DNA from: Cyanidioschyzon merolae | Taxonomy: Eukaryota | Assembly: GCA_000091205.1 (NCBI GenBank) | Contig: AP006497.2 | Reading direction: 5' to 3' (one strand) | Length of the DNA: 64,000 nucleotides | In this document: positions 11,455 through 45,012 of the stretch, piece by piece | Layout of the letters: each line of letters opens with the position of its first letter | How positions within the stretch are numbered: the stretch's first letter is position 1 | Translations under genes and position numbers: made by a program | The notes under the pieces: model-generated | The model's input: only the letters and a program-made list of their open reading frames with translations | What the model was told of the DNA's origin: nothing | Database searches by the model: none

Positions 11455-12150
11455 AAAGTTTAGCTTCTAGGCGGAAGGTCCCGCGATCTGGACAAGTCTG
11501 TTAGGCTGATGCTTCATGCGCTCCCGCAATAGCTGTTGCTCTAGCGAGACCTGAGCAACTCGTCCGCAAACGCAGTTCATTCTGGGACTCAGAGCGGATA
11601 CACTGCGTTTCGATGTCGTCACGGTCGCAGTGGACTTCTTGTATATTGCTTCGCGCTGCAGCAGGCAATAGGTCCGTCTGCGCGATTGGCTCGTTCCCGG
11701 AATGCTCATGAATCCTGATTCCGTAGCAGGTGAATGTAGGCAAAAGGTCCGTCTGCGCGATTGGCTCGTTCCCGGAATGCTCATGAATCCTGATTCCGTA
11801 GCAAGTGAATGCAGGCAAAAGGTCCGTCTGCGCGATTGGCTCGTTCCCGGAATGCTCATGAATCCTGATTCCGTAGCAGGTGAACCACGCCTCGGGCCGG
11901 CACCCTTTGCAGTATGGCAAAAACGTCCTACCTCCGCGATGTATCGTCATCAGCGGTATGAGCGATAAAGCGGACGCTCACGACAGGTACTCGGCGCACG
12001 ATAGAACATACGAAACGACCAGCATATCCGTGAGGAAATATGGGTAAAGGAACTTGGAGCTAGGGTGCAGCACCATGACCAACGCTCTTCTGATTACCAT
12101 TATCCATCCGGCAACCTGTCATCCATGCTCCATGTCCACCGGTTTGTCAT
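11455..12150. repeat. Dispersed repeat, copy A (about 550 bp core), carrying an internal tandem expansion.
   Basis: It begins aggcggaaggtcccgcga... and is alignable along most of its length with 25975-26510. Antisense and sense ORFs in the two copies translate to similar peptides (MLMNPDSVAGE..PAPFAVWQKRPTSAMYRHQRY versus MLVNSDSVSGG..PAPFVVWQKRPVSVMHRHQRL). Confidence 0.6.
11671..11895. repeat. Tandem repeat of 75 bp x 3, nearly identical units, inside dispersed-repeat copy A.
   Basis: Units start at 11671, 11746 and 11821 with the sequence ggtccgtctgcgcgattggctcgttcccggaatgctcatgaatcctgattccgtagcaggtgaatgtaggcaaaa. Copy B (25975-26510) carries a single unit. Confidence 0.85.
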
Positions 12151-12968: not shown

Positions 12969-14495
12969 TCAGATTTTCAGAAGGAGTCTGCGCCATGTAA
13001 TAAGGAACTGTGCATAGCTATGAAGGCCATTCGAGGCCGGCTGCTGTTGCTGCTGCTTCTGGGTGCTGTGACGCAGGCGATACCAGAGGCGCAAGGGCGC
13101 AAAGGCCCAGTGTGCAGCACCATGCGACGCAGTGTCCCCATAACTCGACACGAGATAGCCGTCCACGAGGAGCGTGCCTTCAAAAGTGAGCGGCGCGTAC
13201 GCGTTGGTGTCCACGTGCTCGGTAACTCGTACAATGGTGTCGGTGGATCCATCTTCATGGAGCAAGGCCATACCCGGAAACAGGTTGCGGGCTCGCGTGA
13301 ATCGTGGGCGTTCGTGCGCATCTCCCGGTTGGACGTACACTAAATGATCGGGTGTCATGTGCAAAACGCCACCGCTGCTGGTGTGCAGCGCGATATACTG
13401 GAACGGGCCTGCCGCAGTTTGTTTGTCCGCAAACGCGTACGCGGTCGTGAAGCGCTTCGTCCAGCCACCGCGATTGTTCGGGACTAATGTGGCAATACGC
13501 GTCCCGGGTTCGAGTGCGGATAGCGGCACCAGCGTGCCGTCTGCGCGCTCTACGGTGCTCTCAGCCGGAAAGCAGCCGATGAAGCTCTGCCCACCAGCCA
13601 AGGTCGAGGGACAACCAGAGAAGGACTCTAGTGCGACAAACTTTGCGCTTTCGTTGTATATCGGGGGTCCGAGCGTGATGGTGCTCCCCTGCTGCGGCCA
13701 GAAATCAAACGTCGCAGACGTCTCCACAGGTTCATACATGGGAATATTGGTTTCCATCGGGTTTGCCGGGCAATAAAAAGGTGCACTCATCCCCGTCTCT
13801 CGATAAAAATCCAAACACTCCTCACACACAGAATAGCTGAGCTCCATACCAACATTTTCAACGAAACGAACGTCAACGACAGACGCGCACGTTGGCTCCA
13901 TCCCGTTCACGAACCCGCCTTCGGGAACGATTACGACGCTTCCGGAGGGAACGACAAACACATACGCCACCCCGGCTTGCTGGCCCTTGATAAGCCCCAG
14001 CGGTATCGTGAGCGAGTCGGTCAGTGGCGGGTATGGTCCGCCACTGATGGAAGCGAGCTGCGTGCCATCCGTTTCACCAGTCAAGTATGCGGGGAAGAAG
14101 GCACCACCAAACGGATACGCAGCGACATCGGTTGCTCCTCGGTTTAGAACCACAGCCAGGCTCTCATTTTTCGGGTTCAGAAACTGCCAGTATACGATGC
14201 CCTCAGAACGCGAAATCCACGACCAACTCACCTCAACGCCCAGCGGGCTCGAGCAACTCTGTTGACTACGGACTCGCTCCAAGATACGTCCAACGGTTAG
14301 GGTACCCGCCGGTTTGGTACCTTTTGGGTAGTACAAGTGCCGCAACCTCGCCTGTTTCGAACGAGATATGTCGCTGAGCCCTAGCGTTTTCACAGGCAAA
14401 GCGTACGCCACGTAGCAGCATAATCCCACACTGCAAAAGAGCGCTAGCAACAAAATCCAGGAAAAGAGCACGCGACATCGTAGACTGTGGCCCAT
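12969..14495 (-). CDS. Secreted Hedgehog-type Hint-domain (Hog) protein, paralogue A.
   Basis: It has an N-terminal signal peptide (ATG at 14495) and an N-terminal domain of about 270 aa with NxS/T sites. The autoprocessing junction GCFPAESTV is present. The Hint core reads ...ALHTSSGG.LHMTPDHLVYV...YAPLTFEGTLLVDGYLVSSYG......AHWAFAPLRLWY and is closely similar to the Hedgehog C-terminal autoprocessing domain. Confidence 0.8.
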   Translation of the reverse strand: MGHSLRCRVLFSWILLLALFCSVGLCCYVAYALPVKTLGLSDISRSKQARLRHLYYPKGTKPAGTLTVGRILERVRSQQSCSSPLGVEVSWSWISRSEGIVYWQFLNPKNESLAVVLNRGATDVAAYPFGGAFFPAYLTGETDGTQLASISGGPYPPLTDSLTIPLGLIKGQQAGVAYVFVVPSGSVVIVPEGGFVNGMEPTCASVVDVRFVENVGMELSYSVCEECLDFYRETGMSAPFYCPANPMETNIPMYEPVETSATFDFWPQQGSTITLGPPIYNESAKFVALESFSGCPSTLAGGQSFIGCFPAESTVERADGTLVPLSALEPGTRIATLVPNNRGGWTKRFTTAYAFADKQTAAGPFQYIALHTSSGGVLHMTPDHLVYVQPGDAHERPRFTRARNLFPGMALLHEDGSTDTIVRVTEHVDTNAYAPLTFEGTLLVDGYLVSSYGDTASHGAAHWAFAPLRLWYRLRHSTQKQQQQQPASNGLHSYAQFLITWRRLLLKI

Positions 14496-14834: not shown

Positions 14835-14968
14835 ATGCGACTCGCCATGAAATCCCTTACGACGCTGGTATTCGTCGTAGAGATCGTTGTTTGCCTCAGT
14901 GTATGGTCTGGGTTAGCCCTTCCGGTTTATCGTAGTGACCGCCCCCAGCTGGTGTTCGCAAAGCCGCC

Positions 14969-15000
<32 letters not shown>

Positions 15001-16427
15001 TCGCCGCCGGGGTGCGTCTCGAACGGGCACCGCTGCACCCTCTCGACCAGAGGGTTGTTCAAGAGGTTTCCGGTGCGCCGCTGGGACAGCCTTCACTGCG
15101 TACAAGCGGCACGAGTTGTACGAGCGGTGCAGGTGTGGAGGTTTCCTGGACATGGTTCAACCAGACCAGCGGTATCGTTGTATGGCAGTTCTACAATCCG
15201 ACTTCGAGTGAACGGGCAGTTGTTCTGAACCGCGGGGCGAAAGGCAACAATAGTATCATTGAATCGTACACCTTCGGCGGCGCCTATACATTCGCGTACC
15301 TCGGGAACGGGCTCGCCACGCTGGCCCCGGGGCCGTATCCGACGCTGGAAGCATCACCGAGCGTGTTGCCGGTCGCCATTATAGATAAGAGCGATCCGGA
15401 TATTGGCTTTCTCTTCACTATTCGTGCGGGTGGCACGGTAAGCGTCGAAGAGGGTGGCTTCGTGAACTTGGAACCGTTCTGTGACAGTGTACCTGACGTC
15501 TCGTTCGCGGAGAACGCCGACGTCAACATCACTTATGCAAAGAGTGTTATGTGTGAAGAATACTATTTTCAGGAAGGTAGTTCGAATGTTACGTGTTCTT
15601 CGAATCCTTTGGTGACGACTTGGCCTATTTATCAAGTGGCAAACGGTTCCGTGACGGGACAGAATTACATTATCATGGACTCTAATACACAGATCGAGTT
15701 TTTGAACGTATCAAACTCACAGGGTGGTTCATCGTCGGGATTCTCCTGCTTCCCGGGCGATGCAACCGTCACACTGTCCGATGGACAAGTCAAGCCCATT
15801 CACCAACTCAAGAAAGGCGATTGGATCTATACGCTTTCGTACGACGCCAAGGATCGCAAGTGGTCCCGTGTTTCGACGAGATTTCTCGGATTCCTCGATC
15901 ACAAACCTGCAGAGCGGACTGAATTCCTTCGGATTACGCTGCACGGGACGGATAGCGTTCTAGAGATTACACCGGATCACTTGTTGCCGGTAGTCGCAGC
16001 CGGTCCGTCCCCTGGTGAGCAACGTGAGCGCTATATGCCCGCTCGGCTGGTTGTGCCTGGCGCATTCCTCTTTCTGGAGACCGGTGAGCTTGCCCACGTA
16101 CGCAGCATGACATGGGTGCAACGGACGGGTGCCTTTGGACCGCTCACCGAGGCGGGAACCCTCCTAGTCGACGGGGTCCTCGTCTCGTGCTATGCGCACA
16201 CAGGGAGTCATGAAGCTGCGCATATGAGTATGTGGCCGTTGCGCGTTGGATCCCGTCTATCTCGCTGGCTGAACCCGGTGCATGCCCGTGTCCCAGGGAG
16301 CGCTTGCGCAAGTACTGGTATGCATCCGTATGCGCGTGTGCTGCTCGCTCTTCAGTACATGCTACGCATGTTCGAGCATCCGAGAAGCAAACAATACCTC
16401 CATAAGCATCAGCATATTTGGCTGTGA
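14835..16427 (+). CDS. Secreted Hedgehog-type Hint-domain (Hog) protein, paralogue B, with a polyQ tract.
   Basis: An ATG at 14835 is followed by a signal peptide and Q11. The N-terminal domain (GVEVSWTWFNQTSGIVVWQF.NP...AVVLNRGA...FGGA) is homologous to paralogue A. The junction FSCFPGDATV and the Hint core ...TEFLRITLHGT.SVLEITPDHLLPV...FGPLTEAGTLLVDGVLVSCYAHTGSHEAAHMSMWPLR are present. Confidence 0.8.
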
Positions 16428-19400: not shown

Positions 19401-20174
19401 AAAACATGTTCGACAAAAGCGACGTACGACTGAGAACCTTGTACATGTTCGCTTTCGTGCGACGAGCGTGCACAACACCTCGAGTCGGCGAGCGTCACGA
19501 CGACAGAGACCAGTCGGCAGCGGGTCAGTTGGCGTCAGACACTGCACGTTTGGACGCGTTTCCGAGGAGTTCAATTCTCGATCGAAACTGACTCTGGTAG
19601 GTGCTTTCGAGTTGCCGGCAAATTCACCGCTTCCGGGTAGAGTAAAGCTCGAGAACGCCTTCAGCGCAGTGCCAGTTCTGCCACACGCCACCTTCCCGGC
19701 TCCAGTGAGGTCTAGTTACAAACCGACGCTCCCCGATGCTCGACAGTAGTCTTCGACTCGACCAAGAGGAAACACGGAGAGGCGTCTACGTCACGGGAAT
19801 CAAGCGGCGATCCGGGAAAATGCAGCTCGTCAGGGGCTTTGCCACGCCCTCATCGCGCGAAAACGTCGTATGCTCCAGACGCAAGCGTTGTAACCGCGAG
19901 TGCATGCTGTCTTCGGAAGCGCCGATTGCTCTCCGAACCAAAACACCATCATGAGCAAGGATTCGAGCCCTCGCACCGGTCTCACGATCGCACGCGCTCG
20001 AGTCGAAGCATCGCTCGCCGTCATCGATACAGTTTCTCAAGCCGCAGCCGACAAAACTTCCTGTCCATCACCCGCATGATCCGGCTGCATGCTCGTCACA
20101 GGTTCATTGTCTACTCGTGGAAGAGCGCGCCCCCCGATACAACCGGTACGCGAATGGACAATGCTTCAGAGAGC

Positions 20175-20310
20175 GCATCCCTCATGACCGTCACACTCGG
20201 GCAGGTACCAAGAAGTGCTGCAGCGTAGAGCTGCTTAGCAACGCATCCCTCATGACCATCACACTCGGAAAGGTACCGAGAAGTGCTGCAACGTCGAGCT
20301 GCTTAGCAAC
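20175..20310. repeat. Tandem duplication of 2 x 68 bp.
   Basis: Unit 1 (from 20175) is gcatccctcatgaccgtcacactcgggcaggtaccaagaagtgctgcagcgtagagctgcttagcaac. Unit 2 (from 20243) is catccctcatgaccatcacactcggaaaggtaccgagaagtgctgcaacgtcgagctgcttagcaacg. Confidence 0.8.
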
Positions 20311-20516
20311 GAGCGCGTCGACCTAGATGCCACCGTGGCACCCCCAGTGCCGTCCAGTCTCCGTTGGCCAAGTGCAACGGCGGATGCGACGTCGCCACGA
20401 GTGCCCACGGCAGACCCGGTTTCCCAGAAGATCGCCCGAAGCTATCGGAGCAACCATGAGCTCCTCAGCGGGAACCCTCTTGCGGCGAGTGTTCCAACGC
20501 GGCCTTCACTGCGATC

Positions 20517-23419: not shown

Positions 23420-24000
23420 CACCGAGCCGATCGGCGGACGCTTCGCCGGCTTTTCGGACCGGCAACCAACTACTCCTGCGTGCAACTTCAGGTCGTACTA
23501 TTCGACCTGGAGAGGTTGTCCCAGAAAGTGGGGTCGTGTCAGCTTCGGAGGTCTCGTCTCCTTCAGTGCACGTCTCCTAATATTGATTGCAGCGTTAAAG
23601 TTTCGGTTCACGAATTCCATACGTTTCTTGGCATTGGTTGGTATCACCGACGCAAGTAGACCTCGAACTCGCAACCTCCACGCCATCAGGTGCTCTGGCA
23701 GCGCTCCGTACTTTGCTATATCCTCAGGGCTCCGCTGGCACTTTTCCATCTCGGCACTCTGAAGTGTACACCTCAGCTCGTGGTGTAGATAGGAGTTTCG
23801 GTTCCCATCTATTGGCAACGTGACAAGACGGTGTGCGCACTCCTTGTACGTTCTTGTCGTTGGAGCGGGTGTACACACTTTTTTAGACGCCCGGCGCCCT
23901 GCGACGTATGATGTTACGAGCCTTTGGCTCCTGTCCTCATTGAGGGCGCTCAACTGGTTGAAAAAGTTGGCGAATGCACGCTTTTTTCCCACTGTACAAG
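23420..24000 (-). mobile_element. Degraded TnpB/Fanzor-like nuclease fragment (copy B) covering RuvC-II, the zinc finger and RuvC-III.
   Basis: ORF 23498..23992 reads ...RLVTSYVAGRRASKKVCTPAPTTRTYKECAHRLVTLPIDGNRNSYLHHELRC...KKRMEFVNRNFNAAINIRRRALKETRPP. The antisense ORF 23343..23762 parallels 6667..7095 of copy A. About 600 bp of DNA aligns with copy A. Confidence 0.5.
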
Positions 24001-24545
24001 CTCATACGCAAGCGATTCATCCGGGGCTTTGTATATTCTTTGCACAGCGCTTCCCAATGAGCAACGCGAACTTTTATGAACTCCCGAATGACCTGAAAGT
24101 CCGCTCCATGGCTCGTCACCTCGCTCATAGCTTCCAGATGCTCGTTCACTCCTTCATTTTACGTCTCAATTTTCTTCCTTGCATTCATTATTCCCGATTC
24201 TCGGTAATATCTAGCTTCTGAGAGCTTCAACAGAGGCATGTTTTCCTGGCGCAAGCCGCCGTCAATACCATCTTCCCCACGCTCGGATACCGCAATAGGT
24301 ATAATATTCATGTTCCCGGGGCCCGCGCCAACGACATAGTCCTTACCCTGCACCGCATGCGTCGCAGGATCCGCCTCCTTTTTTTTCATGCCTCGCCGAC
24401 GGCGAAGCATGAAGATGCAATGGGACGATCCACTTTCAAGCGCCGATCGTGTACACACACGGCTGCTCCATCGGCTTCGATCATCTCAGTAAATAACTTT
24501 TGTTTGCTCGTTTTCAGACGTTTGAAATCGAACATATTCACCCAA

Positions 24546-25358
24546 TTACGTCTCCCGGTTTTCGCCCGTAAACTCCTTGCTGCTTAGATCGAACTCCGGA
24601 TAGATCTCCTTCATTTTGCTGTAAAGTACGTAGGGGCCAACTGTCACAAAATGTGACTTGATGTTGCATAGCGGAACGACATTGAAGCGCTTACCCATTC
24701 GGGCAGCGTTCCGTTTCTCTGACTCTTCATTTTTCCCCTCACACGCTGCTCCATCTCCGCCTTGCGTTCGAGTTCTCGATTCAGGAATACGAAATAGTGC
24801 AGGATGAGCGGATAAAAACTTTTTTTCATCTCTGATACCTTTTCTGCTGGATTTGACAAGCCCCAAGACTACACAGTGCTCGTGAACAGCCATACGAATG
24901 ACAGAAGCTTCATTCTTGCCCCTGCGTGATGCCTTCTTGTCGACGAATTCGATCCCCTGTCCATTCTGGCGATCGTTCGTGATGCCACTGATGATGGCCC
25001 GTATCCCCTGGCGGGAGAGGCCCGGGCACAGTGTAAAAATAGCCCGTATGATGAAACGTTCGAGGTTCACGATCATATGGTTCTTCCGGTGCTTGAGGAA
25101 CTTGATTGCCCCGTAGGTGTAAATATCACCATCATCCCTGCATCGAGTACCGTCGAAGCGGAATTCGGCGTAATTCTCGTGGAGGGCGTGCACTCGCTCA
25201 TTTTTCGTCGACGTTTCCCCTGTGCCAACCATCAGGTGGCGAATAAACGTCTTGCTGAAAAATCCCCCCGGGACCTCGACCATTTTGATGCCCATCACGT
25301 CCCGAAACATCTTCTTCATCAAATACATAAGCCCTGACGGAGCCTTCATAATACTCAT
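24546..25358 (-). other. Unassigned 270 aa ORF inside an AT-rich island (about 24000-25800). It lies upstream of, and in the same orientation as, Fanzor-like copy B, and may be the N-terminal or other coding part of the same element.
   Basis: Its base composition differs sharply from the flanking DNA. It is a long ORF co-oriented with copy B. I recognise no motif with confidence. Confidence 0.25.
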
Positions 25359-25974
25359 GGAGTACGACTCGACACGGTTTCTGAGTGCATCTCACAACTT
25401 TCCCTTTTAGGGATCCTTGATATGCCGAAGAAGACGGGCTTTCACAACCATCTCGTCATAGTGCCGTCTCTCTTGCAGCCTCTGACGTCGGACTTCCCCC
25501 TTTTTGCTTTTCGTCCTCTCCTGTTCTTCTGTACTTGACACTGTTTCTTCTTGCAGCCGGCGACATGATGCCTCCATAATCCTCCATTTCCATTTCCATG
25601 ACTTGCACTTTTCATTTTTTTCAAAAAGAACACGCTTTGAAAGCCTCTGCTATAACTCACGAAAAATCACTGGAATACACTTACTTGAGGGTTGGAACAC
25701 AGTTGAGTTCAAAAACTCGACGTTGCTATGACTTCAACGTAAATCCATCCGGTAAGTTAGAGCAACACGCTGATGATCAGGATCGTGTTCCCCTTGAACG
25801 GCGGCGTACGCATGGTGTATCATACCTTCCAGATTTAGAGATGCGCCTATCGACAGCACTATGCGGAGCAAAGAACAAAGACTTACCACTAAATGGCGAC
25901 GATACATCGATGTCTTTCGCTCTCTACGATAAACGTGAAAAGGGGAAAATGTTTCTGACCTGTCGAAAGCGTAC

Positions 25975-26510
25975 CTTAAAGGCGGAAGGTCCCGCGAACC
26001 GCACGAATCTCCCAGGCTTGCGCCTCATGCGCCTCCCAGTGGCGGGTGCTAGAGTGAGATCAAAGCAAATCGTACGAAACGCAGTTTATTCTGGGACCAG
26101 GGGCGGGCGGCTTGCTTCTGGGCGTCGCCCTTGTCGTGGAGGACTCCCCGGAAATCGCTTCTCGTTGCCGCTGATAGGATGTCCGTCTGCGCAGTTTGCT
26201 AGTTCCCGACATGCTAGTGAATTCCGACTCCGTATCAGGTGGAGCATTCCTCGAGCCGGCACCTTTCGTAGTATGGCAAAAACGTCCTGTCTCCGTGATG
26301 CATCGGCATCAGCGGTTGAGGCGCTGTTGCGGATGCAGTAATGCAGGTAATCGGCACACGATAGAACGTACAAACCGACCAGCGTATCCGAAAGGAAGTA
26401 TAGGTCAAGGAACTTGAGGGTGAGGTGCAGCAGCATGATGGACGCTTTTCCAATTACCATTACCCATCGCGCAATAAGGGATCCATGGTCAATGCCAACG
26501 TTTTGTCATC
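25975..26510. repeat. Dispersed repeat, copy B, homologous to 11455-12150 but with a single 75 bp unit.
   Basis: It begins aggcggaaggtcccgcga.... Similarity to copy A continues through ...ggcaaaaacgtcct..tccg.gatg.atcg.catcagcgg... and ...ggaacttg.g...ggtgcagcagcatga...attaccatta.ccatc.... Confidence 0.6.
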
Positions 26511-34893: not shown

Positions 34894-34924
34894 GGTGGTG
34901 GTGGTGGTGGTGGTGGTGGTGGTG
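34894..34924. repeat. (ggt) x about 10 microsatellite just 3' of the tRNase Z stop codon.
   Basis: Direct reading: ggtggtggtggtggtggtggtggtggtggt. Confidence 0.9.
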
Positions 34925-34925
34925 C

Positions 34926-37334
34926 TCAGCCCTCTGAACTCGCCAACTCAGCGTCTAATTCGGAATCAGCAATCTCCAGCGGCTCCTCGAACTCGGATGC
35001 AAACTCCGTCAGCAGCCTCTGCAGGAACAGGGACACAACGTCGCTGTTCGCGACTGCCGGCGGTGTCGTCGTCAGGGTCCTGCTTCCCGCCTGTTCGCCG
35101 TCCTTCGAAAACCAAGGCAGACGCATCAGGTCCCAGGCCAGGAGACAAGAATTCGCCTTCAACCGCTGCTGAGTCTCTGCACTCGATATCAGCGGCAGCT
35201 TTGGATAGCGCTGCGAAAAGTGGGTCAATACTGCTCGCTGTGGCTGCATGCTCTCAATGGTACCCAGAGCTTGGCCAATGGTAGAGTGCTTGCGCAACAA
35301 TGCTTCCGCTTCCTTGCCGTCCTCGAAGGTTGCTTCGTGAATCACTAGTGTCGCTCCTCGTGCAGCTGCAATGAGACCCGCATCATACGGCAGCGTATCC
35401 CCGGAATAGACGAGCTTCCACGAAGCAGCAGCTGCAGCGTTATCGCTACTCCGCGCCGTACTTGGTGCGCTTGTTGGCACAGGAAGCGCTTGCTGCTCCT
35501 TAGAGCCGTTCTGATCCCAACCGGCTGCAAGCGCGCTCTCCAAGACCAGACCGTACGCCTCAGGGCAGTGATCCACCGGCAGCGTCCTCAGATGGATACC
35601 CAGCGTCTGTGGGAAATACTCACTCAATGGAGACGTATCCGATTGCAGCAACGCAGCATTATCCAGAAAAATGTACGACATGGGCTCGAGCTCCGCCAAT
35701 GCCTCCAGCCAACGTCCCAGCAGTCGTGGTCCGAGCACCATCAGCGGCATCATCGCTGTTCCGAGTCGCTCAGATTGCGGAAGTTCCCTCGCTAGTCGCG
35801 TCCGTAACGCGACCAACGAACCAACGCCCAGATGATGATCGGCATGCATATGAGATATCCATATGCAACGCACGCGGTGCAACAGCATCGCCTTGGCAGT
35901 ATCAAGCCCGACAGCTCGAACCAGTTGACCAAAAGTGCCTTCACCGGCGTCAAGGAAGAGTGCATGATCCACGAGATCCACGAGAATCGCGCTCACATTA
36001 CGATATCGACTGGGAAGTGCGCTGCCGGTTCCCAGAAACAACACGGAATACGTCTTGGAATCGTTGTTGCTTGACGTTCGCTTGAGGGTATCCGGCTCTC
36101 GGGGAACGTTCAACCTCGACCATCCATGGTTTGCAGCAGCGTGCGATTCGGGTAACGCCCAACCAAGTGTTGTTCGCGGGGCAGCGTTGAAACGCAGGAG
36201 CGGCTGCGCAAGCTGCCATGTCGCAGGCAGTGCCGACGTAGTACGGGCTCGTGGATCCGCTGGGGCCGTCCACGGCTCGAGAAACCAGTTCCAGTCTACG
36301 AATTTGAGTCGTTCGAGCATTGCCGCTTGGCCCCGGAAGGTGATACGCTGGTTACTGAACGATTCACAGGCCACTGAGTGGTACGCGTCCGCACCGAACA
36401 CGTCCAGAGCCCACTCCTGATATTGAGGATCGCTGAACACTTCCGCACAGAGGAAATGAAAGACGCATACTGGTCGTTTTTGTCTGTGCGTTGGCGTCGA
36501 TGCAGCAAGCCGCTGAAACCATTGCTTGAGACGTTGACGACCGCTGGGTGCCTGCATCTGTGATACCAGGTCCGGGGAGGAGGCACAGAGCATCACGAGG
36601 AGTGGTCCCGGACTCGAAGGTTCCATAACGTCAGTTGGATGCACTGTTCGGCGGGTTCCATCAGGTTGCTCCACTTCAATGGACTCGCCTCTCTGAAGTC
36701 GACCGTAGAGCGGCCCCCGAGGAATCCCCAAGGCTGCTGCACGCTCGGTCACAAAACGACCCTTCTGGTCAGCGACGCGTACTGCATATGTTACGAAAAT
36801 TCGCTCAGCGACTTCGTTCTTCGACGACGAGGATAGGGCTTCCGGAACCTCCTCATCTCGTCGTTCCCCGCAGTGTCGTTTCACTTGATCCTTTTGGGTG
36901 GCCAGTGAGCGCTGCAGCTGTTCATCGACAAGCCAAGGCAACGCATACACGGCAAACAAGGGATTCTGAACGAGCGGATCTGAAGGCTCGTCCTCGCCCA
37001 GTTCGTGAACATGCAGCGGATACTGGGGTCTACTGGCAAAGCGCTTCGCCGTGGAGAGGGTTTTCTCTAGTCCCCGCGGTGCGAACATCGTCAACCCTGC
37101 ATGCCCGGCATCCGCCAGGGAAAGCATCAGACCCAGGAATCCGGCGCAGGTGTCGGCATCCAGTCTACTGAGAAAAACATGGGACAGTTTTCCCAATCGC
37201 ACTTTATACTCAATGCAGAGTCGCTGGGTGCCTTCGCTGCAGTTAAAGAGCAGCCGACGCTCTTCCGAGTGGAATACCACCGACGCTGCCGCATCAGCAG
37301 CACCGTTCCCGAGCCACTCTGCAAACGCTCGCAT
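34926..37334 (-). CDS. ELAC2: tRNase Z, long form (ELAC2-like tRNA 3' endonuclease).
   Basis: The N-terminal pseudo-MBL half is ..LLFNCSEGTQRLC... The C-terminal metallo-beta-lactamase half carries the HxHxDH motif ISHMHADHHLG and the tRNase Z hallmark VLTHFSQRYPKLP. The track start at 37343 is TTG. The first ATG is at 37334. Confidence 0.85.
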   Translation of the reverse strand: MRAFAEWLGNGAADAAASVVFHSEERRLLFNCSEGTQRLCIEYKVRLGKLSHVFLSRLDADTCAGFLGLMLSLADAGHAGLTMFAPRGLEKTLSTAKRFASRPQYPLHVHELGEDEPSDPLVQNPLFAVYALPWLVDEQLQRSLATQKDQVKRHCGERRDEEVPEALSSSSKNEVAERIFVTYAVRVADQKGRFVTERAAALGIPRGPLYGRLQRGESIEVEQPDGTRRTVHPTDVMEPSSPGPLLVMLCASSPDLVSQMQAPSGRQRLKQWFQRLAASTPTHRQKRPVCVFHFLCAEVFSDPQYQEWALDVFGADAYHSVACESFSNQRITFRGQAAMLERLKFVDWNWFLEPWTAPADPRARTTSALPATWQLAQPLLRFNAAPRTTLGWALPESHAAANHGWSRLNVPREPDTLKRTSSNNDSKTYSVLFLGTGSALPSRYRNVSAILVDLVDHALFLDAGEGTFGQLVRAVGLDTAKAMLLHRVRCIWISHMHADHHLGVGSLVALRTRLARELPQSERLGTAMMPLMVLGPRLLGRWLEALAELEPMSYIFLDNAALLQSDTSPLSEYFPQTLGIHLRTLPVDHCPEAYGLVLESALAAGWDQNGSKEQQALPVPTSAPSTARSSDNAAAAASWKLVYSGDTLPYDAGLIAAARGATLVIHEATFEDGKEAEALLRKHSTIGQALGTIESMQPQRAVLTHFSQRYPKLPLISSAETQQRLKANSCLLAWDLMRLPWFSKDGEQAGSRTLTTTPPAVANSDVVSLFLQRLLTEFASEFEEPLEIADSELDAELASSEG

Positions 37335-37876
37335 CAAGAACAAGAGCTACCAACCGTTTCCAACGCGGACACTCACAGCACGCGTCCCGGAGAGTCGCTG
37401 CTGGCTCGGGTAGCGGTAGCCGCGTTAGACGCTAGTCCTGGTATGTCACCAGGCGAAGGTATCGCCGCAAAAAAAAACAACGTGCTACGCAGTCCACACA
37501 CCGTGTACTGTGAGCGCGGTTTGGGTGCTGGTCACTGTAAGGCGCGAAAATCCGGAGACTCGAGGAGCTGCTCCACAACCGCTAAACGAATGAGTACAGG
37601 GTGCGCCTCGTTGACAGCTGAGCCTTTCACCAAAGGCGCCCGCGTTCAAGCGACGTCCGGCGAGAGCGTTGTACACTTCCAGACAGAAACACCGTTCACT
37701 CGGCACTGTCGTCTGCACTTGCAATCCGGTCTAAAAGCGTCCCCGACTAACCAGAACCCTAACAAGAGACGCTGAGTGTGCCGGCAACGACGCCTTGCTG
37801 ACGACGTAGAGCCGTTGTATCGCCGCCGGCGTCCGCATTATAGGCGACGGACGTCGCAGCGATAGCCCTTAAGAGA

Positions 37877-38576
37877 CGTGATAAGAGGAAGGAGGTTACT
37901 TTCCCGACGGGGTATCCAAGTGAGGCCTGTTTGGGTACTGTGCCGGTTCATTGGACTCGATCAAGCATCGTGATAAGAGGAAGGAGGTTACTTTCCCGAC
38001 GGGGTATCCAAGTGAGGCTTGTTTGGGTACTGTACGTGTTCATTGGACTCGATCAAGCATCGTGATACGAGTGAGGAGGTTACTTTCCCGACGGGGTATC
38101 CAAGTGAGGCTTGTTTGGGTACTGTGCCGGTTCATTGGACTCGATCAAGCATCGTGATACGAGTGAGGAGGTTACTTTCCCGACGGGGTATCCAAGTGAG
38201 GCTTGTTTGGGTACTGTACGTGTTCATTGGACTCGATCAAGCATCGTGATAAGAGGAAGGAGGTTACTTTCCCGACGGGGTATCCAAGTGAGGCTTGTTT
38301 GGGTACTGTGCCGGTTCATTGGACTCGATCAAGCATCGTGATACGAGTGAGGAGGTTACTTTCCCGGCGGGGTATCCAAGTGAGGCTTGTTTGGGTACTG
38401 TACGTGTTCATTGGACTCGATCAAGCATCGTGATACGAGTGAGGAGGTTACTTTCCCGACGGGGTATCCAAGTGAGGCTTGTTTGGGTACTGTGCCGGTT
38501 CATTGGACTCGATCAAGCATCGTGATACGAGTGAGGAGGTTACTTTCCCGACGGGGTATCCAAGTGAGGCTTGTTC
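37877..38576. repeat. Minisatellite of 92 bp units x about 7.6, in two alternating unit variants, between tRNase Z and UTP10.
   Basis: Unit starts are at 37877, 37969, 38061, 38153, 38245, 38337, 38429 and 38521 (the last partial). The unit is cgtgata(a/c)gag(g/t)(a/g)aggaggttactttcccgacggggtatccaagtgaggcttgtttgggtactgt(gccg/acgt)gttcattggactcgatcaagcat. Confidence 0.9.
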
Positions 38577-38631
38577 AGGTGCCCTATCGATTATATCGTA
38601 TTCATCACGAATCTCTGCGGTCACTTGGAAC

Positions 38632-41600
38632 ATGAGTCGGCTGCAGGAACAACTACGAATCATTCGCGAACGAGAAGAGGCACATCGCATCCTCGGAGCG
38701 AGTCGCTGTACGGTGCTGTTTCCTGACGAAACTATTGCCTCCCGAGTCTCCTGGTCCGAGTTGGCTGCGCTCGCTCGCAATGGACTCGAACAGCTCATCA
38801 AGTTCGACCAGCGGTTTGCATCATTTCTCGACAGCGACCTGTTTCACCACCGCTACGTTATCGAGGGAGCGACAGCACTTCCAGCACTCGATCGCGGCCA
38901 AGAGTCAGCAGCAGCGAACGCGGAGACCCAACAGCTCATTCAACACTTCTGTTACCTCTTGGTGCCGTATTTTACCACGAGACCTGGACAAAAGTGCGTT
39001 GAATGGCTGCTTCGTGCGCACTCAGCAGGAGCACTGGACCCCGCGTCGCTGGTGGTCGCCGCCCTGCCCTATATTGGGACGGAGGCATTTGAGCGGCTCG
39101 TTGCGGCCTTGCACCTAGCGCAGCATGGTGTAGCAAAAGTGCGCTGGCACTGGCTAGAGCGAGTACACTCCTTGGACCACCTAGTAGAACAGAGCAGCGA
39201 ACTCAACTGGTTCGTGCCGTTTCTCCTGGACACCGCAGAAGCGCTCGTGCGTGCACGCGTTTCGGCCGAGGGCTGGCATCGACTGCTTCTCTGCTATGGC
39301 AGCACGCTGGTAGCCAAACATCCGCTACGAGCCGGAAGCGTCATTCGCTTGGTTACCTTGAGCCTATCTCGTGTTGGACAGGCAGCAGAGCGCGACAAGC
39401 ATCTGTGGCAAGCGTTCTGGTATGCTGCATTAGGGATGCTGGTCGCAGCCTATCGTGCCGTCGGTGCCGCAGTCCGCAGCGATGTATTTTCGGCGACTGT
39501 ACGAGCGCTGCTGCGACTTTATGTGCGCACGCGGACATGGTATTCCGGGGACCCAGCCTGGTGTCGAAGACTCACCCTTGTACTGGCCAACCTCTATGCC
39601 GGGTCTCCGCACCAGCCGTTTCCACATGAGTGCCTGGAGACGCTCTCCAGTTGCACAGATGAATGGTATAGGGTGCTGGGAGCCTTGGATGCGTCAGAAA
39701 CGGAGTCTTTGCGCACGGCTTACAGTTTAGCGCTGTTGGAATACTGCTGGCACCAGCAGGACGCTGATGATGATTGCTGGCACCAACTGGTTGCACGCTT
39801 GCCTCCATCCCCTTCGGGATGTAGCGCTTTGATCGGGCGCCTGTTGGAACTTTTCGACGCGACAGTGGCATCGGAGTCAGCTGATGCCACTAAGGTGCAT
39901 TCTGCAGCAGATGCGCAGATGATGCGGTCACAAAGGATGATGGACGCAAGCACTGAGACGCGGGCTTCACTATCTGCAGATCATGCGAATGCGAACTTGG
40001 AGACTCCTGGCTCTCCATGCAGCGCAACCGAGATGCAAGCTCCTGCTGAATGGCATGAAACAACGTCACATGGTCCGGAAGTGTTATTATCCAAGGTGTC
40101 GTGCAAGCGGGGAGGTCGCACCACGACCCATCCACCAAGTGATTCGGACGCTGATCGGGAACGCTTCCGGTCTGCAGCACCGACGACTGAAACGGCATCT
40201 TCGACGCTTGCAGCGACGCCTTCGGGGTCACTGGACGCCAAGCATAGAGCGCAGCCTGCTGGGATGCTCCCGGGGACGCGTGCACCATCAGCGTCTGCCC
40301 TGACGAGGGCAACGGTGGAGCCTGGAGACGCCTCAGCAGCCGACGCAGCATCCGGCGCAAGAGTCGTTTCCGCAGGCATCGGGGCGGAGGCGCCTCCAGA
40401 GGATACCTCTACTGCGCCGCACTCGCTTCGTCGTCGACAGGTACCCAGCGAGGTCGCAGCGCTCGATAGATCTCAACGCATATTGCGCCCGCTGGTAGCG
40501 CATGTCGATCCGGTTACGTTCTGGGAAGCGCTCTACGCTCATGAGCGTCGTTTTCGCGGCAGGGCCAGGTCGTGGACCCTGCTGTGCGAACGCTGCATTG
40601 CGGCGAGCAGCCCGCTTCGAAGCCTGCAGCATCCGGATCCCCGAGTGCGTACTCGGACCCTCCATGCGCTCAGCCAGGCGCCATCTGCAGTACAGGAGCA
40701 GGCGCTTCCCATCATCCTGGAGCTGCTCCAACAGCCGAACGGCTTCGAGGATGATGTGCAGCGAGCTCTCTGCGCACCTGATGACGCTACTTGTGGTGAC
40801 GTATTATGGTTGCGAGATCAACTGGTGCGGGTGGGTGCTCCAGCACTCGAATCCCTCCTACCGCGCGCGATGCTTCTGTATCTGCGCGCTGTAGGGGCGT
40901 GCCCTGTACGAGCGCTCGTGCGATGCTACCGACTGGCGAGTCGGTATCGCCACGGAATGAGTGCCTCGCCAAAGGAAGCCGATGAAATTCATAGCCGTGG
41001 ATTGGCCGAGGGCGTCATTGTCTGGGAGGCAGCGTTTGAACAACTCTGTGCACACTGGAAACTAGCCCCCGAGACGAATGCCGAGCGAGCTGCACGCCGG
41101 GCAGAGCCGGCTGAAATGTGGTTCAGGCGTCTAGGCGAACGCTTTGGACGCTCCAGAGGCGCCGAGGCTTTCACTGCGCTTCTGGAGCAGCTCGTCGACT
41201 TGACGATGAATGAGGATGAGAACGGCGTTACCGCATGTACTTTGCTACTCGAATGGCTTCGCACAGGCGCTGACTTGCTCGATGAGGTGACCATTTGGCG
41301 TTTCCTGGCGAGCATTGTGCATCGACTTGCCGCTGTCCATTGGCTAGCGCCCGTGTCGCGGATACTGCACACCCTCAACGATCGACTTGCACAGACAAAG
41401 CCGATCACGGATCCAATGTTGGTTATGCCTCATGTTCAGCGGATTCTAGAGGCGATTGCTTCGGTACTGGCTCGTGCGCCGCACCCGAGTGCCATCACCG
41501 TGCTGGCGGAAACGTTCATTTGGCTGGCGACGCAATCGAGTCCCATGGAATGCGAGGCGGTGTGCTATGCCCTGCAGCTTGACACTTACCGCGAACAAGT

Positions 41601-44600
41601 GCTCGAGTTTTTGGCCAACGCTGGTGTACAGGCGGCGCGCTGGCTCGCAGTCGGAGCGATTGAGCCGGTCGATGTGCCCGCTGCGCTCGCACTGCTGGAC
41701 ACGTGCTCTGCAAACCTGGGTGTCGCTGGTACAACTGCACTCTTGGAGCATTTATTCAGAGCCTGCGCAACGGATGCAACCTGGTCGGCCCAGTTGCGGC
41801 AACAAACGCGGCGCTTGCTGCACCAGATCGTGCACGAGCATCCCGAAAACGATCATCGAGAGCACCTCCTGGACCGCCACACTGCTCAACTGGTTGCGAC
41901 CTGTATACGACTACTGAAACCGCTCGACGATTCCGACTGGTGCGTGGTTGAACCGTTGTGGGCAGTATCCAAGGCGTCGACGGGTCTCGCAGTCATCCGA
42001 GCGCTCCTCGACGCCTTGCAGGAGCGGGCGACGGACGCAAGCATACCCCAAGCACCGTTGTCGCGCCCGCTTATCACAGCGCTGATCGCGGCCTGCCGCT
42101 GGCTCGCCACCGGACCAACGGAGCAGCCAGCGTTCACGCTCGTTGTACCACGCTCATGGTTAGTGGACCTGCTCCAAAGCAGTGCCTTCCACGCAGACAA
42201 CCAGAAGAGCTTGTGGTTACTGGAGGCTATCGACCTCGGACGTCTTGACTGGAAACCAGAGCCTCCTGCTGCATCCAATGAACACGTATCGACAACACCA
42301 ACAACAGCGACACGCTCCGATTCAGACCCATGGATGAGGTTCATTCAAGAACAGTTCGACCTGGCATGCAGCGGGACGCTCGATACGAATCGCCTCAGCT
42401 GTGTGCTGTGCGTGGCGCTCAGAGATGGAACAGCGCGTGCAGCGCTCCAAGCGCGCCACGTGGCAGCACTGCTGAACGCCAACAAAGCATCGACATGCAC
42501 GCATGTGCCGCAGGGTGATCACCAGCGATGGCGGCGACACGCAGCGCGCCTCCTGATCCAGTGCCTGCACGATGCGGGCACGCGTGGATCGGGGCTCCAC
42601 GGCGAGCTCCTGGAGGCGCTCCTGGGAGCTCTCTGCCAGCACCATGAATGGCTCCCTGCATCGGAACGGCCTGCGTATCGGGTGACGGTTGTCAGGGGCC
42701 TGGTGTGTTATGCGCAGAGCCTTCGGAGCGGGGACGCTGTGCACGCGATGTGGAACGTGGTATGCTTGACCGCGAGTCGCGATCTGCCTTTGGATGCAGT
42801 GCGCGATCTGTTTAGGGAGGTCATTGGGCAGGATGAGGCTGCGCTAGAGCCGGTGTTTCGGGCGCTTCGTGATGCGCGGCGCATACGCGCTGGTACGCTG
42901 GCGCCTGTGCACGCTCCGGGGGCAGCTCGGCGAGGCGATGCGACGCTGTCCGAGCATCGCTCGTCATTGTCGTCGTCGTCGTCGTCGTCGTCAACAACAA
43001 CAACAACAACAGCAACATCGCCGGTATCCGCAACTGCGATGGATCGCTTATGGCTACAGCTGTTGCAGGATGCGGCGGCTTGTGCGCCGAGGCACGTGCG
43101 CCGGCTGCTCTCGGAAGCGTCCGGGATTGCGCCGGCGGTACTCCAGCGTCTGCCTGAGTATCTGGATATGGGGCGCGTCTTCGGAAATGACAGCACCGAA
43201 GATATATTGAGCTTTTTAGAGACGCGGCATTTGCCAGTAGCGCTTGTGCAACACCTGGTGACGCAAGTATGGCCCTTGACGCGCATTCGTGAAGCGCTTG
43301 AGAAACGCGCACAGCCAGTCGTCATGGCGATTCTGGTGGAGCATCTGGTACGCGTGGCGCGGGCGGATGTACCGCGCAAACAGCATCACCAACGTCGGGA
43401 GCTGCAGGAGACGTTACGGGTGCTCGGCCGGCTCTTGCTGGAACAAAACGCTGATCCTGTGCTGGTGCGGCGCTGGCTCGAGCATCCGTATACGCGGACG
43501 CTGGGGCCGGGTATGTTGCCGCTGCTGGCCGCACATGCGGATCCTGTTTGTGTCGCATGCGCTGTTCGGACGTTTGGGCACAAAATGGTACCGCATTTGC
43601 CGCGCGTGTTGGCGCACTGGCCAGCACCGCCTGTTGTGCAAGCGCTCCTGGAGACGCTTCCCGAGTTCGTATCAGCGCCGTACATCCGCCAGCTTTGGGC
43701 GAGCATGTCGGAAAGCTTTCCCGACGATCGGGAGGCGGCAGCGATGCGTTCGCTGCTGGTTGAAGCGGCTCCACCGATGTCGATCCTGGAAGCGCTGAAA
43801 GCGGAAACGCAGCACCTGGCATGTTTGAGCGGCTGGAAAATGATGCACACGGAACCGTTCCAGAGTTTAACAGCGGCGCTTTCGAGCTGGGATTCAACTT
43901 TGGTCCAGCGCTCTTCCGAGCAAATTTTAGCTGTGATCTGGCGAGGTCTGGAAAGTCGTGAACGCATCATGATGAAAGCATTCTATGCAGGACGCGAAAC
44001 AGAGCCGTCCATAAGCGAGCAGCTCGAGCAGCTCGAGACGCATTGTATGGAAGCGTTGGTTACCATGGTGCTGGTGCTGCCACACCCGGCTTGTGGCGAG
44101 ATCCTCTACCGCAGCTTGCTCTGGTGCCAGTCGTTCGCAGCGGATGAGGACAGCGCGGGCGGAGATATCGCTAGCGAGCGCCCAGCGCGTCCGACAAAAC
44201 GACAACGAAGCAGCAGCAGCAGCAGCAGCAGCACTAGTAGTAGTAGTACTATCGGTAGTGACCCTGATGAAGCAGCACCTCTTGGAAGAGCGCACATGCG
44301 TCGCGCGTCTCATTGGCGACGCATCGTCTGGTTCAAACTTATAACAAAGTTCGCATCGCGTCTCGGTAGTCGCTTCCAGGAGTATGTCGAACTCGTCTGG
44401 GATACGATTGCGGAACACGCTCAGCTGGACGCGGCTGGTGCGGCGACACCAGACCCGACGCCCAGCGAGGCGGCTGAGGTACGAGTTGCAGCGCTCGAGA
44501 CGCTTGCGGTGTGCCTCGAAGCAGCGACACCATCGTGTGCGCAACTATCGAGCTCGCAATGCGAAACATGTCTGGATATCCTCGCCCAGTGGCTGTCCGA

Positions 44601-45012
44601 GGCGCACATGGCATCGCCGGTGGCAGCCACTGCCCTAGAGCGTCTGGTAGCGGCGCTGGCGCGCAGCGGCCTGTCCCAGCGAGTCACAACAGTGTCGACG
44701 ACGTCCGGCACGTCTTCGCCGCTGGTGCGCCTCGGACGTCTCATTCTGGTCATGCCTGAGGTTCGTCGAGTGCCGGCTTCGTCGGCAGCGGCAGCCTTGC
44801 GCTTACGGGTGCGCCTGGTGCGCGTCCTCATCGAAACGCTGGACGAGGCGTATCTGCCGCCGCTGCTGCCGCGAACCCTATCGTGGCTCGCCGAAGTGCT
44901 CGATAACCCCGACAGTGCCGTTGAAGAGATGGCACGAGATATTGCAAACCGCCTGAGTCGAATTTCGGGCGAAGATATCTTGACGCAGTTGCGCGAAACG
45001 CCAGCGATTTAG
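38632..45012 (+). CDS. UTP10: UTP10/HEATR1 (U3 snoRNP / SSU-processome HEAT-repeat protein).
   Basis: It is about 2125 aa of Leu/Ala-rich HEAT-like repeats. The N terminus MSRLQEQLRII resembles HEATR1 M.SLAQQL..L. The C terminus LPPLLPRTLSWLAEVLDNPDSAVEEMARDIANRLSRISGEDILTQL resembles the HEATR1/BP28CT terminal HEAT repeat. The ORF-track start at 38479 is TTG, inside the minisatellite. The first ATG is at 38632. Confidence 0.75.
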   Translation: MSRLQEQLRIIREREEAHRILGASRCTVLFPDETIASRVSWSELAALARNGLEQLIKFDQRFASFLDSDLFHHRYVIEGATALPALDRGQESAAANAETQQLIQHFCYLLVPYFTTRPGQKCVEWLLRAHSAGALDPASLVVAALPYIGTEAFERLVAALHLAQHGVAKVRWHWLERVHSLDHLVEQSSELNWFVPFLLDTAEALVRARVSAEGWHRLLLCYGSTLVAKHPLRAGSVIRLVTLSLSRVGQAAERDKHLWQAFWYAALGMLVAAYRAVGAAVRSDVFSATVRALLRLYVRTRTWYSGDPAWCRRLTLVLANLYAGSPHQPFPHECLETLSSCTDEWYRVLGALDASETESLRTAYSLALLEYCWHQQDADDDCWHQLVARLPPSPSGCSALIGRLLELFDATVASESADATKVHSAADAQMMRSQRMMDASTETRASLSADHANANLETPGSPCSATEMQAPAEWHETTSHGPEVLLSKVSCKRGGRTTTHPPSDSDADRERFRSAAPTTETASSTLAATPSGSLDAKHRAQPAGMLPGTRAPSASALTRATVEPGDASAADAASGARVVSAGIGAEAPPEDTSTAPHSLRRRQVPSEVAALDRSQRILRPLVAHVDPVTFWEALYAHERRFRGRARSWTLLCERCIAASSPLRSLQHPDPRVRTRTLHALSQAPSAVQEQALPIILELLQQPNGFEDDVQRALCAPDDATCGDVLWLRDQLVRVGAPALESLLPRAMLLYLRAVGACPVRALVRCYRLASRYRHGMSASPKEADEIHSRGLAEGVIVWEAAFEQLCAHWKLAPETNAERAARRAEPAEMWFRRLGERFGRSRGAEAFTALLEQLVDLTMNEDENGVTACTLLLEWLRTGADLLDEVTIWRFLASIVHRLAAVHWLAPVSRILHTLNDRLAQTKPITDPMLVMPHVQRILEAIASVLARAPHPSAITVLAETFIWLATQSSPMECEAVCYALQLDTYREQVLEFLANAGVQAARWLAVGAIEPVDVPAALALLDTCSANLGVAGTTALLEHLFRACATDATWSAQLRQQTRRLLHQIVHEHPENDHREHLLDRHTAQLVATCIRLLKPLDDSDWCVVEPLWAVSKASTGLAVIRALLDALQERATDASIPQAPLSRPLITALIAACRWLATGPTEQPAFTLVVPRSWLVDLLQSSAFHADNQKSLWLLEAIDLGRLDWKPEPPAASNEHVSTTPTTATRSDSDPWMRFIQEQFDLACSGTLDTNRLSCVLCVALRDGTARAALQARHVAALLNANKASTCTHVPQGDHQRWRRHAARLLIQCLHDAGTRGSGLHGELLEALLGALCQHHEWLPASERPAYRVTVVRGLVCYAQSLRSGDAVHAMWNVVCLTASRDLPLDAVRDLFREVIGQDEAALEPVFRALRDARRIRAGTLAPVHAPGAARRGDATLSEHRSSLSSSSSSSSTTTTTTATSPVSATAMDRLWLQLLQDAAACAPRHVRRLLSEASGIAPAVLQRLPEYLDMGRVFGNDSTEDILSFLETRHLPVALVQHLVTQVWPLTRIREALEKRAQPVVMAILVEHLVRVARADVPRKQHHQRRELQETLRVLGRLLLEQNADPVLVRRWLEHPYTRTLGPGMLPLLAAHADPVCVACAVRTFGHKMVPHLPRVLAHWPAPPVVQALLETLPEFVSAPYIRQLWASMSESFPDDREAAAMRSLLVEAAPPMSILEALKAETQHLACLSGWKMMHTEPFQSLTAALSSWDSTLVQRSSEQILAVIWRGLESRERIMMKAFYAGRETEPSISEQLEQLETHCMEALVTMVLVLPHPACGEILYRSLLWCQSFAADEDSAGGDIASERPARPTKRQRSSSSSSSSTSSSSTIGSDPDEAAPLGRAHMRRASHWRRIVWFKLITKFASRLGSRFQEYVELVWDTIAEHAQLDAAGAATPDPTPSEAAEVRVAALETLAVCLEAATPSCAQLSSSQCETCLDILAQWLSEAHMASPVAATALERLVAALARSGLSQRVTTVSTTSGTSSPLVRLGRLILVMPEVRRVPASSAAAALRLRVRLVRVLIETLDEAYLPPLLPRTLSWLAEVLDNPDSAVEEMARDIANRLSRISGEDILTQLRETPAI

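Follow-up and report, generated by a model that had tools for sequence, protein, structure and literature searches.

A 92-bp minisatellite of strain-variable unit composition separates the divergently oriented genes for tRNase Z and UTP10 in Cyanidioschyzon merolae

The red alga Cyanidioschyzon merolae is a model organism whose completely sequenced genome is extremely simple and poor in repeats, and a conspicuous tandem array between two of its RNA-processing genes raises the question of what this repeat represents, how it arose and whether the neighboring genes make use of it. The array is part of a stretch of 64,000 nucleotides from contig AP006497.2, which was analyzed as a whole (the window) and encodes six proteins that are identical to BAM81539, 81541, 81542, 81548, 81552 and 81554 of C. 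merolae 10D. The 16.5-Mb genome has been described as very repeat-poor (PMC1955436), and the articles consulted on the repeats, the resequencing and the completed genome of C. merolae do not describe the array. Our literature search found no transcription start site data usable for the tRNase Z/UTP10 locus.

The two genes that enclose the array are oriented divergently with their starts facing away from each other, an arrangement that is conserved in three relatives. The tRNase Z gene (34926–37334, minus strand) encodes the long, ELAC2-type form of 802 aa; its product is identical to C. merolae 10D BAM81548.1, contains the Pfam domains Lactamase_B_4 and Lactamase_B_2 and matches ELAC2 in the PDB at 1e-62. 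On the other side, the UTP10/HEATR1 homologue (38632–45012, plus strand, 2126 aa) aligns with its residues 5–178 to residues 5–166 of human HEATR1 in the PDB search (E=3e-11) and exhibits a weak C-terminal match to BP28CT in Pfam, while a protein look-up found no record of the exact UTP10 protein. The colinearity of its N-terminus with HEATR1 from residue 5 and the lack of an in-frame ATG upstream of 38632 place the UTP10 start at this position. The gene identities proposed by an earlier sequence-only reading of this DNA are upheld by the Pfam and PDB matches, and its start codons at 37334 (minus) and 38632 (plus) as well as the gap of 56 bp between the array and the UTP10 ATG are correct.

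The spacer between the two start codons measures 1297 bp, of which the array accounts for 699 bp, leaving about 600 bp without it. The unique part on the tRNase Z side comprises 542 bp (37335–37876) and is 98.7–99.4% identical in environmental strains, and a unique stretch of only 19 bp (38613–38631, plus strand; position and unit table) directly precedes the UTP10 start codon. The only two TATA tetramers of the whole spacer flank the array, and each is oriented towards its own gene: TATAAT is located on the minus strand (37837–37842) 34 bp to the left of the array, and the TATA-like TATAT on the plus strand (38592–38596) 16 bp to its right and 36 bp before the UTP10 ATG, which sets the two elements 750 bp apart. 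The designation as a “bidirectional promoter” is appropriate with respect to the divergent gene pair, but the ATG-to-ATG distance of 1297 bp exceeds the usual sense of the term, which is less than 1 kb.

Three minor observations pertain to the surroundings of the tRNase Z gene. The sense strand upstream of its ATG (37335–37837, minus strand) contains 501 nt without an ATG, compared with 6.5 expected (P=7.5e-4). Two other genes likewise have ATG-free leaders (488 and 337 nt; upstream of 60807 and 31647), which points to 5′ UTRs of considerable length or to a genome-wide scarcity of upstream ATGs in C. merolae. At the opposite end of the gene, a perfect (GGT)10 microsatellite (34894–34924) is separated by a single base from the stop codon of tRNase Z (34926–34928) and thus represents an (ACC)n tract at the very start of the tRNase Z 3′ UTR.

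The structural organization of the array is very regular. TRF delimits it at positions 37877–38575 with a period of 92, 7.6 copies, 95% matches, 0% indels and a score of 1258, and the repeat search documents a constant head-to-tail spacing of 92 bp; according to both analyses and the unit table, it comprises seven complete units followed by 55 nt from the beginning of an eighth. An invariant 36-nt core occurs eight times in the array, compared with no occurrence in 100 shuffles. The array is characterized by a GC content of about 0.51 with a G-rich plus strand, and a centromere or AT-rich element was rejected on the basis of this composition; the repeat search found no inverted repeats in the array, terminal ones included. 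The earlier description of a “perfect” array with 7.6 copies of a 92-bp period at 37877–38576 is confirmed in position and period by TRF and the constant spacing, but the adjective holds only for the register, which is free of indels, and not for the sequence, as the units of 10D are 93–100% identical.

Nearly all differences between the units are confined to two patches (unit table), both of which are as previously described, including the alternatives gtgccggtt and gtacgtgtt that correspond to patch B. Patch A (unit positions 7–13) is either AAGAGGA (A1) or ACGAGTG (A2) with differences at positions 8, 12 and 13, and patch B (unit positions 66–69) is either GCCG (B1) or ACGT (B2) with differences at positions 66, 68 and 69. 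Private substitutions of the 10D array are C51 in u1 and G31 in u6. The order of the units in 10D is u1 A1B1 (with C51), u2 A1B2, u3 A2B1, u4 A2B2, u5 A1B1, u6 A2B2 (with G31), u7 A2B1 and u8 A2. Patch B accordingly follows a strict alternation (B1, B2, B1, B2, B1, B2, B1) that results in a 184-bp dimer; given four B1 and three B2 units, the probability that such an order arises by chance is 1/35. Patch A shows neither alternation (A1, A1, A2, A2, A1, A2, A2, A2) nor a 184-bp period, and the “alternating unit variants” of the sequence-only reading are hence restricted to patch B of 10D. All four combinations of the two patches are present, and each patch represents a set of three linked substitutions without intermediates, so that recurrent mutation does not account for the mixture and the units must have undergone exchange or conversion among themselves; the same conclusion had been drawn from the mixed combinations before and is sound.

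In addition, together with the last bases of the unit before it, patch A2 makes up an interrupted inverted repeat of 9 bp (ACTCG ATCA [AGCATCG] TGAT a CGAGT), which is located at 38052–38073 and at the same place in every A2 unit, while A1 has two mismatches there. An origin of patch A by template switching, based on this 9-bp inverted repeat with the preceding ACTCGATCA, was considered and dropped, as only two of the three changes fit (p ~0.26).

A comparison with metagenome and Logan contigs that encode an identical or 99.6%-identical tRNase Z allowed us to judge whether the array exists outside the reference. Four contigs end at or within the array: L006 terminates 10 nt before it, and L003, L013 and L005 terminate 7, 110 and 182 nt into it, respectively. 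Three further contigs (L010, L011 and L012) span it completely. The flanks of the environmental strains are 98.7–99.9% identical to those of the window, the left junction ...CCCTTAAGAGA followed by CGTG is present in every contig that reaches the array, the right junction GGCTTGTT followed by CAGGTGCCC is shared by all three spanning contigs, and these three, the sole contigs extending that far, agree with the window at 56 of 56 positions directly upstream of the UTP10 ATG. These shared junctions of independent contigs show that the array is real. Contig ends at or within a repeat are the expected behavior of short-read data and thus fit a genuine array; the repeated occurrence of two kinds of unit junction in 10D, B1–A2 with three and B2–A2 with two instances, explains why assemblies from 150-bp reads break here.

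The idea that the array or its number of copies arose artificially in the assembly of the reference draws on the general proneness of tandem repeats to assembly errors and on the different copy numbers of short-read contigs. It conflicts with the recurrence of the units and the left junction in assemblies of at least six samples and of the right junction in three. Moreover, each pair of adjacent units in 10D has a distinct signature of A/B types and of the substitutions C51 in u1 and G31 in u6, so that reads of a few hundred bases should be uniquely placeable. The sequence-only reading had named an artefact, or the absence of the array from independent assemblies, as its refutation, and this fails with six other assemblies sharing the left and three of them also the right junction. 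As to the existence of the array, the artefact is already refuted, and overall we regard it as hardly credible.

The same contigs show that the unit composition is clearly polymorphic among strains. The array of L012 consists of A1′B1 and a partial A1 (1.6 copies), that of L010 of A1′B2, A1B1 and a partial A2 (2.6 copies), and that of L011 of A1′B1, A1B1, a 29-bp truncated unit, A1B1 and a partial A2 (3.9 copies); the incomplete arrays begin with A2B1, A2B2 in L005 and with A1B1, A2 in L013. The apparent copy numbers of 1.6, 2.6 and 3.9 compared with 7.6 in 10D are no more than a hint, since the contigs stem from short-read metagenomes and repeats of this kind may be collapsed by de Bruijn assemblers, but the length of the array is probably variable among natural populations as well. 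The polymorphism that the earlier reading proposed to look for between strains is thus established for unit composition and suggested for copy number. The truncated unit of L011, a contig from Yellowstone (8139–8167), is composed of CGTGATA and TTCATTGGACTCGATCAAGCAT with an internal deletion of 63 bp; it is a genuine variant with a deletion or else a chimera created during assembly.

The evolutionary age of the array was narrowed down by a comparison with three more distant cyanidiophytes, namely, L007, L008 (Cyanidiococcus yangmingshanensis, VWRR01000004.1) and L009, whose tRNase Z is 63%, 62% and 43% identical, respectively. All three relatives have UTP10 and tRNase Z as a divergent pair in conserved synteny with the surrounding genes, and the orthologous spacers have lengths of 656, 521 and 248 bp. 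None of these three spacers contains a tandem repeat, and blastn searches (word size 7) with the unit and the whole spacer retrieved only chance 11–15-mers and no ancestral single copy in L007–L009; a motif comparison of the three relatives revealed no pattern common to the orthologous spacers. The C. merolae spacer minus the array has a length of about 600 bp, which resembles the relatives without a repeat, and the array is thus a gain in the C. merolae lineage. As an aside, the tRNase Z orthologue of L008 (9303–11632) is annotated as two gene models, one of 172 aa that contains the N-terminal tRNase Z domain and another of 543 aa, which suggests a frameshift, an intron or a split of the annotation.

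A clue to the origin of the unit comes from the sequence on the right of the array. The 37 bp at 38576–38612, which include the TATAT at 38592–38596, match the tail of the unit in register at 19 of 37 positions, and this similarity, which represents one statistical test, has a permutation p of 3e-4 and a value of 7e-4 against all 37-mers of the window; the left flank matches the unit at 27 of 92 positions and thus at chance level. The in-register match of the tail indicates that the eighth unit is degenerate but of full length and extends to 19 bp upstream of the UTP10 ATG. Its earlier classification as partial has to be corrected accordingly. Such a diverged terminal unit is typical of an array margin that homogenization does not reach, and the unit was probably first duplicated from the proximal upstream sequence of UTP10.

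We therefore propose the following scenario, in which the UTP10-proximal origin, the mechanisms of exchange and the neutrality of the array are inferred. The array would have started with a tandem duplication of about 92 bp just upstream of the UTP10 start, and the eighth unit beside UTP10 would represent an old, diverged copy. Out-of-register exchange, either as unequal sister-chromatid exchange or as replication slippage, may then have caused growth, shrinkage and partial homogenization of the array, while short-tract gene conversion together with exchange would have shuffled the two patches into four combinations and left the 184-bp dimer of patch B in strain 10D. Mechanistically, the array multiplies whatever short elements its unit contains (a reverse CCAAT, an E2F-like TTTCCCG, GATA in A1 and the ACGT core in B2) and sets the starts of the two genes about 650 bp further apart than in the relatives. 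It would be selectively near-neutral, and if UTP10 transcription were affected at all, this would be a side effect depending on copy number rather than a maintained function. One observation runs counter to neutrality, namely, that all strains whose contigs span the array have retained both junctions and no fewer than 1.6 copies. Taken together, we consider it probable that the array is a lineage-specific, non-coding minisatellite of the VNTR type in the tRNase Z/UTP10 spacer, which is near-neutral and of UTP10-proximal origin.

Several alternative explanations have to be weighed against this minisatellite. The array is non-coding, because each of the six frames contains 6–9 stops with a longest open run of 77 codons, and the coding hypothesis was rejected for the same reason. 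This bears out the earlier assessment as non-coding and at the same time contradicts the accompanying statement that every unit is open by accident. The plus strand of the whole array is free of ATG, compared with two ATGs per unit on the minus strand, but its absence is not significant as a sign of a 5′ leader, since a shuffled unit is ATG-free in 16% of cases; it is at best weakly compatible with a location of the array in such a leader. A cluster of tandem small RNA genes of the snoRNA, tRNA or permuted-tRNA type, with one RNA per unit, would be in agreement with the unit size of 92 nt and the RNA-processing function of the neighboring genes, and the variable patches could in principle serve as guide segments. 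C. merolae is moreover known for unusual permuted tRNA genes (PMC3728597). However, Rfam searches retrieved no family inside the array at E<=10, the sole match being a chance-level miRNA at 37677–37750 outside of it, ARAGORN detected no tRNA in the window, and the folding energy of the unit is no better than that of shuffles on both strands and in two registers (z-scores −0.28 to −0.52). Furthermore, no C/D box pair (RUGAUGA ... CUGA) is discernible in the unit by reading, and the patches do not covary, as all four combinations occur. The small-RNA cluster is thus largely refuted and retains practically no probability. A dispersed satellite or mobile-element family with further genomic copies, which the sequence-only reading had suggested, is unsupported as well. 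A blastn search with word size 7 found no second copy of the unit in the 64-kb window, and an exact scan of JGI metagenome contigs with a 26-nt core yielded three matches, all of which represent the same locus in environmental C. merolae, although the same metagenomes provide contigs of 55–57 kb from the alga; one match originates from the dataset Ga0078972, a Yellowstone hot-spring metagenome (PMC8986864). The unit has no match in IMG/VR and the prokaryotic genome collection, and the array lacks terminal inverted repeats. As far as the window, the JGI metagenomes, IMG/VR and the prokaryotic genomes are concerned, the unit is confined to a single locus, and we give hardly any credence to a dispersed family.

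The remaining alternatives assign a function to the array. It must overlap the upstream control of UTP10, because its end is separated by 16 bp from the TATA-like TATAT and by 56 bp from the UTP10 start codon, and the motifs and TATA elements are compatible with a location in the shared upstream region of two core promoters. Pattern matching identified one reverse CCAAT and one E2F-like TTTCCCG as candidate sites in each unit, a full match to TTTSSCGS in unit 6 only, WGATAR exclusively in A1 units and an ACGT core exclusively in B2 units, all of which are short consensus matches of 5–7 nt without statistical weight. An upstream activating element that depends on copy number and drives or tunes UTP10, and perhaps tRNase Z, might thus be envisaged, in which case copy number and unit type would set the expression of genes for ribosome and tRNA biogenesis in each population. 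It would be in line with the proximity of the array to the UTP10 start, the probable derivation of its unit from UTP10-proximal sequence, the once-per-unit motifs of which the GATA and ACGT matches are switched on and off by the patches, the position between the only two TATA tetramers and the retention of the array in the six other C. merolae assemblies that reach it. On the other hand, the motifs are putative in C. merolae and devoid of statistical support, the orthologous spacers of the three relatives contain neither the repeat nor a common motif pattern, and apparent copy numbers from 1.6 to 7.6 give no sign of constraint; we regard the activating element, including its proposed influence on expression by population, as unlikely. 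Its most far-reaching version, a natural dosage dial for ribosome biogenesis in which the number and subtype of promoter-derived 92-bp modules, with CCAAT and E2F-like sites in each and GATA and ACGT sites that can be switched, would set the transcription of UTP10 and possibly tRNase Z, is quite improbable, but if true, hot-spring populations of C. merolae would differ in growth-related expression via the length of a minisatellite. Alternatively, the array could organize chromatin, with a 184-bp repeat that phases nucleosomes or insulates the two divergent promoters. The alternation of patch B over seven units of 10D is perfect, and nucleosome repeat lengths span a range that includes 184 bp. 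However, no alternation is found in environmental arrays (B1, B1, B1 in L011; B2, B1 in L010), patch A does not follow this period, the same gene pair of the relatives works with spacers of 248–656 bp and no repeat, and the amplification of a two-unit block explains the alternation equally well, which makes a role in chromatin organization very doubtful. The best reading of the array remains that of an ordinary lineage-specific promoter minisatellite.

This minisatellite has several counterparts in other systems. Minisatellites or VNTRs in the proximity of genes are exemplified by the 5′ VNTR of human INS and the upstream VNTR of MAOA. The C. merolae array corresponds to them as a non-coding head-to-tail array with a unit of tens of base pairs, within the range of about 10–100 bp for minisatellites, just upstream of a gene, and in its interspersed variant units, its species specificity and its strain-variable composition and probably copy number. 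In contrast to typical minisatellites, the array measures only 0.7 kb and has a unit (92 bp) near the upper limit of the size range. Its host differs from that of INS and MAOA as a unicellular alga in the haploid phase with a very repeat-poor genome of 16.5 Mb, and the array has no known association with a phenotype or with expression. A second parallel is provided by the unstable tandem repeats that Vinces et al. reportedly described in yeast promoters in Science in 2009. In the compact genome of C. merolae, the array likewise lies in the upstream region of a gene, UTP10, and ends 56 bp before its ATG, a strain-variable repeat number is suggested here, and the array could by analogy tune expression via factor sites or nucleosome occupancy; however, yeast promoter repeats are mostly short-unit and AT-rich, whereas the unit of C. 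merolae has 92 bp and 51% GC. The intergenic spacer of Xenopus rDNA contains promoter-derived enhancer repeats of 60/81 bp, and their homology to gene-start sequence recalls the single in-register match of 19/37 reported above. UTP10 is a protein-coding gene transcribed by Pol II, unlike the Xenopus rDNA, and an enhancer activity of the C. merolae repeats would be hypothetical. Finally, the strict alternation of the B1/B2 subtypes in 10D with its 184-bp super-unit resembles alpha-satellite dimers, from which it differs by comprising 3.5 super-units at a single euchromatic locus that is neither centromeric nor AT-rich, and by its absence in other strains.

The variability between strains and the breakage of short-read assemblies make the array usable for the discrimination of laboratory and environmental strains and call for caution in assembly and variant calling at the tRNase Z/UTP10 locus. 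Homologous recombination is efficient in C. merolae. If it is true that copy number affects the expression of UTP10, the evolvability of promoters by repeats would become open to study outside yeast.

The window contains further tandem repeats in spacers. A second minisatellite with 3.0 copies of 75 bp and 96% identity (11661–11884) is located 555 bp upstream of the ATG of the ORF at 9946–11106 (minus strand, BAM81539) and is present with 2.0 copies in two environmental contigs (L015, 1796–1944; L016, 1801–1950); many short-read contigs for the BAM81539 gene also break upstream of this gene. A third tandem duplication (68 bp, 2.0 copies, 91% identity, 20174–20311) is found in a region without a long ORF. 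Because another minisatellite of the window, that of 75 bp, varies in copies as well, spacer arrays look like a general mutational product, and they seem to represent a general mutational feature of C. merolae spacers rather than a device specific to this locus.

Two other features of the window are worth mentioning. The region 24000–26000, which overlaps the ORF at 24546–25358 (minus strand), exhibits the lowest GC content (0.45–0.51) and a strongly negative GC skew. Two divergent paralogous genes annotated as “similar to hedgehog protein” (Hint domain) are located at 12969–14495 (minus strand, BAM81541) and 14835–16427 (plus strand, BAM81542); the latter contains a (GCA)10 run at 14969–14998, and its environmental variants have a length of 526–529 aa compared with 530 aa.
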